Assembly (NCBI GenBank): GCA_044892525.1
Contig: CM097885.1
Location: 35,218,001 to 35,282,000 of the forward strand
Reading direction: 5' to 3'
DNA: 64,000 nt
DNA from: Schmidtea polychroa
Lineage: Eukaryota
Part shown: in pieces, positions 32,101 through 64,000 of the stretch
Layout: every line of letters begins with the position of its first letter
Numbering within the stretch: position 1 is the stretch's first letter
Notes under the pieces: generated by a model
Database searches by the model: none
What the model was told of the DNA's origin: nothing
Seen by the model: the letters and a program-made list of their open reading frames with translations, nothing else
Translations under genes and position numbers: made by a program

Positions 32101-35100
32101 CGGGTGATCCGCACATCAGCAAATTCTAATTAAAAAATTGAATTAATAGGGGCGGCAATATTGTTTTTACGGCACTGAGAACGAGGTCACTATGATCTCT
32201 ATGTTTGATGATTGATGAGGGAATGTTTAAGTGTACAATGAAGTAAAGTAAGTATGTATGCGACCTGTATCAATAACATTGCTTAAGCTAATAATACTCA
32301 CCTTTCTATATTATAGAACTGAAAGCACTATAAAAATATTGAAATTGCATGTTCCAATTTGAAATTTCTTAAATAAATATTGTAATATAATGTCTTCAAA
32401 CAATAAAAAATGCTAATAATAATAATGATAATAATAATAATAATAATAATAATAATAATAATAATAATAATAATAATAATAATAATAATAATAATAATAA
32501 TAATAATAATAAATTACCGTTTGGACAAGTTTTATAACTAAAGAAACACAATGAACTGTGTTTTAGTAAATTTATGTTTGAATTGATACTCTGAAAACAG
32601 AAACTTGCGTAAAATTTATTAGAGATGCTACTTTCTTTGAAGAAATATGGGAAAATAGAGTGAAAATTTTCTCTTTGGTTTATTGAAATAATGCGACTTT
32701 CCTCATAAAAATTGATTGGACATTTCAATTGTAAAGGTTTTATAATGCCAAGTAAATTGATGGAAAAATTCTGACCTTAAAATACAATTATAATAATCAA
32801 TAAAAATGTAAATTAATATAATTTTTTATTTTTTAATAAAATTTCAATTAATTGATTTGCGACTTTAAATCAGATATTGTTTTTTTACTATATGTATTAC
32901 CAATTCAAATATTAACCATGTTAAACATGTTTACACACACACACACACTCATATATATATATATATATATATAATCTTAGAGAAAAAATTATTACAGAAT
33001 AGTAGGCTTTGAGCTATTACATGAGTTCAAATTATTATATAAAATTATTATAAGAACTTTTATTTCTTCCAATTTCACCAATGATTATTTTTTCCATTAA
33101 ATTTATTAAAAAGAGAGTTTGAAGACTATAAATCAGTAATATATCGATGTTTGTTGAAATTTTGTTGAATTTTCACTTGAAAAAGGCAGTGCCGAAAATT
33201 CGTGAGTATCAGCAAACATCGATATATTACTGATTTATAGTCTTCAAACTCTCTTTTTAATAAATTTATTATATAAAAGTTTATTAGTAGCTAAAAGCAA
33301 GAAATGTGGACTATTCTGAATAAATAAGTTCGTTTGCAGCTCGAAAAGCTCGAAAAGCTCATTTTTTAATTTATTTATTAAGTATTATATTTCGAATTAG
33401 ATTTTTTTAAGTTTTGAAATAATAAATTTTTAATCAGTAAAAAGTATACATTTTTGTTATATTTTTCATTATATAGAGGCCACATATGATGTCAGATCTG
33501 GGATTCTAAGTGGCTCTAACAGGCTATATATATATATATATATATATATATATATATATATATATATATATATATATATATATATATATATATATATATA
33601 TAATTTTTGATTTCCTTCTACCCCCTCTAAATATTTATTTATTTGTTTTATTTGAATTTATTTTGATTATATTTCATTGTCATTGAATTTTTAACATTAA
33701 TTAATTAATTAACATTAAAATTTTTACTATTTTAACAAACCTTTGGACAATCGATAGATACAAAATTTATACGTTATTCTAACAAAATTTTTTTTAGAAT
33801 TTAAGTCAATTTTAAGACTCAATTTGATGAAATTGTATAATTCGTCCGAATTCAGTTTAGCTTTTTCAATCTCAAATACTTCCTCAATAACATTTTGGAA
33901 TGAATATATTTCATCATTGACCTTTGGGCACTTTCCACTAATTGCTACAAAACCAATCATTGGGAATTTTTCGTAGTTTTTGAAAGTGAAAAAACTCTTT
34001 GAAATGTGATATTTACTCAAAGAACAGCATAGAAACATTTTTGAAATGGGATACAACATTACGAAATCAATGTCTACAAATTCCTCATTAAATATTATTT
34101 TTAGAAAATCTAACTGACTTTTCATGGAGGAACACTTTTCCCCTGAAACAATACAAAATGGATCTTTTGGATATGATATAACAACCGAAGAAATGTATTG
34201 GAAATTCATTAACGAATCCCAATGTTGTCTTTTTGTAAATCTTTGAGCTGTTTCACTAGTCTGAATCGGAAATATGATTTTATTTGACCATTTGTAATTG
34301 TCTAAAAAATTATTTAATTTATTAAACTAATTGAACATAATTTTATTGTAGGTTTTCAATAAATAAACACAAGTAAAAAGATACAAAAAACAATTTTATT
34401 TTTTAGTTTAAAAACTATTTAACAACTTACTTAAAATCTGACTCCGAATTAAAATAATTTTTTTTTATTTACTTAATTTTGGCCCATTTAAGCTCCATAT
34501 TTGTTTAAATGTTCATAGTGAAAAACCGCAGATAGAGAATAAGGATAAAAACATTTTCAATTACTTTAAGTGCTGTGGAAAAATCTGTCCGATTTTGAAA
34601 AAATGTAAGTTTCATCAAAATTATTAAATTAATTTCAAATAATTAACAATAAAATCCTTAAAATTATTAATGTTGTTTCAGCCGACTTTGTTTTTGTTTT
34701 TTATCGCGTCTGTGTGCGCGGTATTGTTAGACTTGTGTTTGTATTGGTGAGTGCACACAGACGCGAGGAATAGGTAATAATTTTTAGTTTTAATTTAAAT
34801 GGATTGATTTTTTGTGGATTGTAGACTTTTTCGAGTTTTGTTTGAAAGAGTTGCTTTATCAGGGATTTTTGAAATTGGAATCGTCAAAAGGAAATGGAAC
34901 ATTATTACTTGAATTCGATCGAATCACTTATACAGATTGCAATTAGGGTTTAACAATATTCGGGTTTCTCAAATATTCGAATATCAAATAATAAATTCTT
35001 AAATATTCGAATTATTCGAATATTTCGAATACTTACTTGACTATGTGATAAAAAATTTTGAAATAAAAAAGGAAAATTAAGCAACGATTATTTATAATAT

Positions 35101-63205: not shown

Positions 63206-64000
63206 CGCGTCTGTGTGCGCTTTTTTCTTTGTTTTGGTTGTGTGCGCACACAGACGCGTAAAATTAAAATGTAGAAATTTTTAATCCGATCCTCGCGTCT
63301 GTGTGCGCTTTTCTTTTCTTTGTGTTTGGCTGTGTGCACACACAGACGCGAGCAAGAGGTAAGTTGTTAATCTTTTAGATTTTAGATTTTTATCGATTTT
63401 GAATTTGTTAATTAGAGTTGGAATTTTATCGACGTTTGGAATGAATGATGATTAATTTGAATACATGTGGCTATTGCAATAAAGAGAGTTGTTAAAGATG
63501 GCAATGGAACTCGAGTTGTTGAACTCTTATGGATTTGGTTTTTCGTTTTGTATTATGAGCTTCCGATTAAAGATGGCAACATCTAAATATAACGGGGGAT
63601 TGATGGTTCTCGGTGATTTAGTGGCAAGGTTGAATAGAACCCGCAGCAAAATGGAAATAGAAACTATTTGTAAAGACGATGTTATCAGATCTATCAAATC
63701 TATTAAAATTCTGGGTAATGGATTCTCTCTAATCACATTTTCTCGAGACCGGCAATTAGTTCAATCTGTACCTGAGCAAAATGGCCGAATCGATATTGTT
63801 TTGTGTTCAGAAAGGAATAATATGAGATCAAATTTATGTGTAGCTACACAAAGACAGGTTCCAGATAAAATGATTGAGAAGAGTTCAGCTACAAGATTGT
63901 TTAATATTACTGAAAGTACTGGAAGTGTTATGACTGGTATGATCCCTGATTATCGATCTCAAGTATGTCGTGCACAAATGGAAGCAGCTCGATTTAGATA
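63206..64000 (+). pseudogene. Hairpin-leader chimeric unit C: SNF8/VPS22 fragment fused in frame to a proteasome alpha-1 (PSMA6) fragment; runs off the window
   Basis: Two leader hairpins and a donor at 63359. Open frame from ATG 63573: NGGLM..DDVIRSIKSIKILGNGF..LVQSVPE, then VATQRQVPDKM..LFNITE..VMTGMIPDYRSQV.RA..EAA. Confidence 0.8.

Follow-up and report, generated by a model that had tools for sequence, protein, structure and literature searches.

LTRs of a BEL/Pao retrotransposon in Schmidtea polychroa carry intronless host mRNA pieces, probably read in frame through ubiquitin into Gag

Introduction

The stretch of DNA analyzed here, termed the window, comprises 64,000 nucleotides of Schmidtea polychroa (assembly GCA_044892525.1, CM097885.1:35,218,001–35,282,000, forward strand), and its coordinates are counted from 1. 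A hairpin-type inverted repeat recurs in it ahead of pieces of housekeeping genes, which raises the question of what this repeat is and by which route the gene pieces came to lie behind it. An earlier note on the same DNA had located the repeat at 34704, 45883 (diverged), 63206, and 63292; it is present at all of these places, the copy at 45883 being degenerate. The note interpreted the repeat as part of a mobile family that collects sense-oriented pieces of host mRNA, which holds, but it mistook the nature of this family, since the units are LTRs flanking a gag-pol gene.

Results

The hairpin units are LTRs of a BEL/Pao retrotransposon

The hairpin marks the 5′ end of the LTR of an abundant BEL/Pao retrotransposon. 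The motif of its arms has seven matches in the 64-kb window versus 0.02 expected by chance, and the exact two-arm pattern has 2,380 matches in the 781-Mb genome versus none for a reversed control. We retrieved 41 hairpin loci, mostly in genome-listing order; 48 units were examined for cargo and reading frame. Hairpin units have 0.7 to 1.0 kb in common before they diverge, and some of them are near-identical pairs flanking long frames. In L045, the two repeats of 857 bp are 99.9% identical, show TG and CA ends, and are enclosed by a 5-bp duplication; herein a primer site follows the first repeat and a purine tract precedes the second. The internal region, as seen in L048 with L049 and in L110, contains DUF1759 (gag), DUF1758, RVT_1, Peptidase_A17, Integrase_H2C2, and DUF5641. 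This order of gag, protease, RT, RNase H, and integrase with Pao-type domains is the one by which BEL/Pao elements are recognized.

A genomic tRNA-Met(CAT), whose sequence shows initiator features, has a 3′ end complementary to the 18-nt primer site. Junctions of LTR and primer site occur 359 times genome-wide (control, 0). In a set of 29 primer-site loci, a hairpin lies at most 1.6 kb upstream in 24, and AATAAA is found 35 to 59 nt before the LTR end in 25. A matching 3′ LTR is present within the retrieved stretch in 12 of the 29 (95.8–100% identical, 776–1,067 bp where whole), seven of which show a clear 5-bp target duplication. Single units exhibit a 5-bp duplication in 11 of the 25 cases in which the end could be placed; the duplications flanking L033 and L026 measure 94 bp and 19 bp, not 5 bp. 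The family has been active recently.

The earlier note had seen neither ends nor target duplications around the units and had proposed an independent mobile promoter/first-exon cassette with DNA-level capture, comparable to Pack-MULEs or Helitrons. This cassette would suit the observations that most units are single with no internal genes seen, that some sit within (ATT)n tracts, and that two have long flanking duplications. However, the search for ends, target duplications, and an autonomous partner that the note itself had suggested revealed TG..CA ends, 5-bp duplications, and pairs of identical repeats around a BEL/Pao gag-pol with primer site and purine tract, and parental introns are lost from the cargo. 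Pack-MULEs and Helitrons capture at the DNA level and keep introns, and they end in terminal inverted repeats or in TC/CTRR. The present family shares with them that fragments of several host genes are carried by an element of high copy number. The long terminal inverted repeats, the duplication of 8 to 11 bp, and the retained introns of Pack-MULE/Pack-TIR elements are all missing, and the 5-bp duplications and TG..CA ends stand against a Helitron, which makes no target duplication and terminates in a 3′ hairpin plus CTRR. Hence, the cassette and its Pack-MULE or Helitron variants are refuted for the tested units, and as a general account they are scarcely credible. Penelope-like, Helitron, and SINE readings, suggested by microsatellite flanks and variable ends, were likewise dropped once paired LTRs around gag-pol appeared.

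The hairpin as a probable pair of DNA binding sites

Three of the window hairpins fold with z-scores of −4.7 to −7.2 relative to shuffled sequences, and the degenerate one at 45883 folds no better than its shuffles (z 0.02). An Rfam search at the hairpins gave no match. Comparison of 76 distinct hairpins revealed compensatory changes in 2 of 72 changed pair cells, and the changed pairs comprise 32 G-U and 24 A-C, so that a strand preference is not clear. The arms are kept as sequence, whereas the loops are unrelated. An RNA-structure reading is disfavored by the scarcity of compensatory changes, by the balance of G-U and A-C, and by the absence of the repeat from the relative L136. Because the arms are conserved across unrelated loops with few compensatory changes, it more probably represents two inverted DNA sites for protein binding in U3. 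In the distant relative L136, no inverted repeat of the hairpin type was found; the hairpin is thus family-specific and dispensable for capture.

The GT donor that the earlier note had described behind the last hairpin is present at all three window loci but does not extend to the family. Of the 48 units, 19 have an AGGT at a distance of up to about 15 nt from their last hairpin, and a splice donor at this position is not supported as a family trait. Any GT occurs within 14 nt in 39 of the 48, and the surrounding sequence is T/G-rich.

Architecture of the window loci

The features of the three loci are collected in Table 1.

Table 1. Features of the hairpin-bearing loci and their surroundings within the window.
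Feature	Position	Strand	Characteristics
Solo LTR 1	34674..36595	+	Begins with TG; about 820 bp without the hAT insert; terminal CA decayed
Inverted-repeat hairpin near the 5′ end of LTR 1	34704..34766	+	Arm motif, fold
hAT DNA transposon remnant inside LTR 1	34944..36039	-	PF05699, terminal inverted repeats, 8-bp duplication
RACK1 mRNA pieces in LTR 1	36052..36365	+	Deletions and one stop; 86% to sister LTR L038
PRP19 piece in LTR 1	36366..36569	+	5′ UTR end and U-box; ATG at 36390
Actin-carrying member of an old, decayed subfamily (by similarity)	45870..46608	+	Hairpin 45883–45940; actin pieces from 46109 (Pfam)
Polinton-like integrase gene, target of LTR 3, outside the family	62285..63185	-	rve, chromo
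Solo LTR 3	63186..64195 (window ends at 64000)	+	1,010 bp; 5-bp duplication AATCA
Two tandem inverted repeats in LTR 3	63206–63258, 63292–63352	+	Arm motif, fold
SNF8 piece in LTR 3	63573..63815	+	97% (over 202 nt) and 93% to parent L074
PSMA6 piece in LTR 3	63840..64000, on to about 64155	+	Parent's 43-nt intron 2 missing at about 64009

The ends of LTR 1 were set by comparison to its sister LTRs L038 and L040, and the 5-bp target duplication AATGT occupies 34669–34673 and 36596–36600. Its hAT remnant of 1.1 kb, with a dimerization-domain frame at 35110–35823, separates the hairpin from the gene pieces, which the earlier note had taken to follow the leader directly. The PRP19 piece is 88% identical to its genomic parent L071 over 204 nt. 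LTR 3 holds a stop-free frame of 272 codons and inserted into a Polinton-like integrase gene; a packaging ATPase is found further along in L016. An internal 45-nt GT..AG stretch of the parent is missing from the SNF8 piece of LTR 3 with the frame preserved. The proposed identities of the gene pieces (RACK1 with PRP19, actin, SNF8 with PSMA6) are confirmed by sequence comparison and Pfam, all being in sense and intronless; the proteasome alpha piece is PSMA6, and its best matches are flatworm proteins. The subfamily of the actin locus has 44 other matches with 69 to 83% identity. By this similarity, the actin locus is assigned as a presumably older, decayed relative, at which LTR ends, a target duplication, and a primer site are not demonstrated.

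The cargo derives from spliced RNA and is inherited

A Pfam host domain is present within 1 kb of the hairpin in 29 of the 48 units, two 3′ LTRs being counted via identity to their 5′ partners. Three further units match Pfam-identified cargo at the DNA level, and 16 are unidentified or empty. The commonest source is PSMA6; others are SNF8, a zinc-ribbon/RING protein, RACK1, PRP19, actin, a Rab, a dual-specificity phosphatase, a cofilin-like protein, and a second proteasome subunit. Genomic parents were compared for PSMA6 (L124), SNF8 (L074), and PRP19 (L071); the PSMA6 parent was located with a C-terminal query and is absent from the loci retrieved by a PF10584 search.

The cargo came through spliced RNA, as evident from parental introns absent in PSMA6 and PRP19 pieces, which answers the comparison of fragments with parent genes at intron positions that the earlier note had recommended. 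LTR 3 is devoid of the 43-nt intron 2 of the PSMA6 parent, L065 of introns 1 and 2, and the 41-nt PRP19 intron is absent from all seven copies spanning its site; the coding part of the SNF8 parent is intron-free. Since copies share ancestry, these counts represent few events. Identical mosaics recur at many loci, and EAP30 (SNF8) has 328 candidates genome-wide, of which 150 were scored. Capture is thus rare, inherited, and followed by reshuffling. Hence, the statement that the family repeatedly acquires host fragments is right as to the capture of host pieces but not as to a new capture at each locus: a limited set, with PSMA6 foremost, is inherited by subfamilies and reshuffled. At the junction of the RING-protein piece and PSMA6, there is a 9-nt in-frame microhomology, the RING parent being represented in this comparison by a RING-only LTR; the SNF8/PSMA6 junction in LTR 3 contains intervening sequence, and simple microhomology was not seen there.

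One open frame connects the LTR with ubiquitin and Gag

A single frame begins within the LTR, continues across the primer site, passes through a ubiquitin ending in Gly-Gly, and enters Gag. In 22 of the 29 primer-site elements, the Gag-side frame is open for at least 110 codons inside the LTR, as compared with at most 38 codons for the other two frames; nine of the 29 loci were not drawn blind, four of these from a list displaying frame length, and 15 of the 20 loci drawn in list order show this open frame. Far upstream of the primer site as well as for about 200 codons or more behind it, the frame is open in 15 of the 29, the rest being broken. Across the 48 units, sense frames of at least 100 codons occur in 38 versus 13 for antisense. 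The frame of L110 runs over 1,683 codons from a Rab/PSMA6 mosaic via ubiquitin and Gag to RT. Where ubiquitin was found, the final copy before Gag ends in GG in 21 of 23 elements, and the spacing between primer site and ubiquitin varies by multiples of three, with two exceptions among the located copies. A donor-like AAG|GT follows the primer site in 26 of the 29, by which splicing could bypass the linker. Contigs of three runs, presumably of RNA, cover most of L110 with no clean GT..AG joint, and neither start, strand, nor level is derivable from them.

The pN/pS values of cargo relative to parents are 0.99, 0.74, 1.4, and 0.52, which are non-independent by shared ancestry, and seven stops are seen in the cargo versus about 15 expected. 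With codon drift near neutral and stops depleted, selection appears to act on the open frame and not on the cargo protein. Alternatively, the cargo of the same LTR family could be kept for a function, its peptides, derived from proteasome, ESCRT, RING, phosphatase, and chaperone proteins, being decoys or helpers or its RNA mimicking host mRNA before the piRNA system. The richness in proteostasis and trafficking genes (PSMA6, SNF8, RING-type E3, PRP19 U-box, Rab) would fit such a role, as would the strong amplification of the PSMA6 and SNF8 subfamilies, seen in the EAP30 candidates, and the retention of start codon, frame, and poly(A) signal by solo LTRs, which could make the peptide alone. However, pN/pS is near 1 for PSMA6 exon 2 and SNF8, pieces are freely swapped, the relative L137 has just a tandem repeat in their place, and the sources are typical abundant mRNAs, so that a functional cargo is considered unlikely.

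Relatives in other animals

A search with the RT-RNase H region listed 120 BEL/Pao proteins, all of them with PF05380 and seven with ubiquitin. In a tree of the 120, these seven and the present element fall into one clade of 14 with a support of 0.947; two other scanned members of this clade start downstream of the expected ubiquitin position. The Gly-Gly end of ubiquitin is kept in all seven, and the primer-site peptide lies in frame upstream of ubiquitin in four. Ahead of ubiquitin, the relatives carry kinesin and Sec24, TRAF and ch-TOG, HSP90, or DnaJ; the Sec24 piece of P0123 is about 50% identical to that of many animals. At the DNA level, two of the seven ubiquitin-bearing relatives (L136 and L137) and, in addition, L144 were examined. 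In L136, a purine tract is followed by TG and an open frame containing the TRAF and ch-TOG pieces, behind which come the primer site, ubiquitin, and gag-pol. From this order along the contig, in which a single LTR copy is present, its cargo occupies a 1.8-kb segment at the LTR position. In L137, a tandem repeat alone takes the cargo position. For the remaining ubiquitin-bearing relatives, we infer that the cargo sits in the LTR. Judged from these sequences, the layout of cargo, ubiquitin, and Gag is apparently common to a wider RT clade.

Among 80 metagenome loci, 16 have the same primer site. Three of these are open on both sides, all with ubiquitin; ahead of the primer site, the remaining 13 are open for no more than 49 codons. 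A tblastn search for ubiquitin over the 80 loci recovered L136 alone, a sensitivity too low for calling ubiquitin absent from the 13 control loci. These loci bear on a further reading, according to which transcription begins downstream of a cargo located in U3. Gag would then be translated from a spliced start or from one further downstream, and the LTR frame would be open as a remnant of the parental frames. The donor-like motif after the primer site agrees with it, as does the inherent openness of pieces taken from coding regions. Against it, a single frame links the various cargoes with one another and with the primer-site frame, the spacing of primer site and ubiquitin keeps to multiples of three with the two exceptions, stops are depleted, and the frame is closed in non-ubiquitin relatives that share this primer site. 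Cargo in U3 is therefore very doubtful.

Discussion

Proposed mechanism

The account that we regard as highly probable is that these BEL/Pao LTRs carry intronless mRNA pieces continuing in frame via ubiquitin into Gag, with gain by template switching and tolerance through deubiquitinases as its likely steps. Transcription would start upstream of the cargo, which would thus lie within an R region of 600 to 800 nt. During minus-strand synthesis, the RT would switch onto a co-packaged mRNA and back, and the new R would be copied into both LTRs with pol untouched, so that the element would stay autonomous. With Gag translated from a start codon in the LTR, only in-frame, stop-free captures would survive. 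Host deubiquitinases are likely to cut after Gly-Gly and to free Gag, as ubiquitin insertions do for NS3 in pestiviruses; hence, the content of the leader would become irrelevant. Later recombination between LTR variants would shuffle the mosaics, and LTR-LTR recombination would leave solo LTRs.

Significance

In a broader view, toward which we lean only slightly, this is an undescribed, old BEL/Pao clade in several animal hosts, in which the LTR serves as an open cargo bay and ubiquitin uncouples Gag from its contents, so that any in-frame mRNA piece could be inserted. Thousands of solo LTRs would then act as units of promoter, ORF, and poly(A) that shuffle host exons, possibly turning piRNAs on housekeeping genes or shielding the element. 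Gene capture by LTR elements normally cripples the element, whereas here it takes place in the LTR and the element stays coding. This opens a route to mass-produced chimeric host-gene copies, with hundreds of PSMA6 and SNF8 pieces in one genome, and predicts that host deubiquitinases are used in the maturation of a retrotransposon protein. Since the parent genes are known, such a genome offers many natural replicates in which template-switch capture can be measured. The housekeeping-gene copies carried by LTRs also confound the annotation of genes, the design of RNAi, and the calling of piRNA targets in genomes of this kind.

Comparison with known systems

In the open-access literature searched, no description of an LTR-cargo-ubiquitin-Gag layout was found. 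With BEL/Pao elements, the family has in common LTRs of 0.8 to 1.1 kb, an 18-nt primer site, a purine tract, a single gag-pol, and the order PR-RT-RH-IN. The ICTV profile of BEL/Pao (Belpaoviridae) gives an Arg or Gly primer and a non-coding region beside the 5′ LTR (PMC8742986); here, in contrast, the primer is tRNA-Met, the primer-site region is coding, and the frame begins in the LTR. Since other BEL relatives use the same Met-type site, the Met primer marks a variant and not non-membership. Ubiquitin before Gag and mosaics of host mRNA in the LTRs set the element apart from known BEL/Pao. "Flow" BEL/Pao families have been reported in a planarian, in a source whose accessible part is without the words "ubiquitin" and "host gene" (PMC3118150).

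Ubiquitin in a polyprotein is best compared with cytopathic pestiviruses, where captured cellular ubiquitin is described as a processing signal cut by host hydrolases (PMC8310069). Both systems have ubiquitin in a polyprotein with foreign sequence upstream; pestiviruses are, however, RNA viruses in which NS3 is released and the insertions are sporadic, whereas here ubiquitin is a fixed trait of a retrotransposon clade and its cleavage is inferred. Burro/GYPSM1 (PMC6431247) are likewise planarian LTR elements with host-like polyprotein domains, one of which is ubiquitin/SUMO-like. They are Gypsy elements of about 30 kb with stable accessory internal domains instead of variable mRNA mosaics in the LTR. 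For BARE-2 of barley, a passage of a review (PMC13317346) reports that template switching brought foreign sequence into the LTR, as proposed here; its donor was another retrotransposon and not host mRNA, and that passage describes no coding fusion.

LTR-mediated retroposition was described by Tan et al. (2016, PMC5131818) as yielding retrocopies that replace internal ORFs and thereby create non-autonomous elements; this work includes one mosquito BEL case and cites Bs1 of maize. Both systems exhibit intronless, partial, multi-gene pieces in sense; microhomology, reported for that system, is seen here at one junction and not clearly at a second. The present family differs in that gag-pol is retained and both LTRs contain the cargo, which is joined in frame ahead of Gag and has been multiplied into hundreds to thousands of solo LTRs.

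Subfamilies and derivatives of the BEL/Pao family

Two ubiquitin units precede Gag in one subfamily (loci L105, L096, L106, L108, L109, and L122). Its first unit closely resembles host ubiquitin and, hence, appears to have been recaptured from a polyubiquitin mRNA. Gag-only derivatives of the family (L045, L105, L113, L114, L122, and also L096) have internal regions of 3.0–3.5 kb, and five of them possess paired LTRs with 95.8–99.9% identity. Several retain the long LTR-to-Gag frame despite the absence of pol.

Among the 29 primer-site loci examined, 26 contain a donor-like AAG|GT following a conserved 40-nt block, approximately 40 nt downstream of the primer site start; beyond this block and the AAG|GT, the subfamilies differ. 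This donor-like motif could possibly give rise to a spliced subgenomic RNA. The SNF8 piece of solo LTR 3 (63186–64195) lacks a 45-nt GT..AG stretch at window position ~63774, which is present in the parent gene and in sister LTRs; cryptic splicing apparently removed it in a subsequent passage through RNA.

The LTRs of one subfamily (L021, L022, L025, L028, L029, L039, and L040) frequently reside in (ATT)n or similar microsatellites, which suggests a target preference. Direct duplications other than 5 bp in length flank the LTR units of L033 (94 bp; 1895–1988 and 2844–2937) and L026 (19 bp; 1979–1997 and 2759–2777; both in leader orientation). Repeated pieces of what we take to be a TRAF-like gene adjoin the LTRs at L027, L031, L034, and L048.

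A tRNA gene array elsewhere in the genome, and features of the window

Outside the window, tRNA-Met(CAT) genes form a tandem array with a period of 454 bp at 79.33–79.39 Mb of sequence G000:C1 (L098–L103), and their 3' motif has 1,248 matches across the genome. Features of the window itself are listed below; the frame names in both Polinton-like clusters are partly provisional.

Other elements and genes in the window
Feature	Position	Strand	Remarks
Polinton-like gene cluster	1–5300		Integrase, ATPase-like, capsid-like frames
Rfam tRNA match	4745–4817		Weak (32.4 bits); within Polinton-like cluster
Presumed phosphagen (arginine) kinase-like gene	6851–7168, 14251–14526, 17699–18016		Exons
Gypsy-like sequence	~15600–17400		Splits the kinase-like gene
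Gypsy-like LTR element	24400–29420	(−)	Identical 294-bp repeats at 24402 and 29125
Gypsy-like LTR element	55671–57122	(+)	
Polinton-like gene cluster	58000–63280		Extends past the window; integrase, ATPase-like, capsid-like frames
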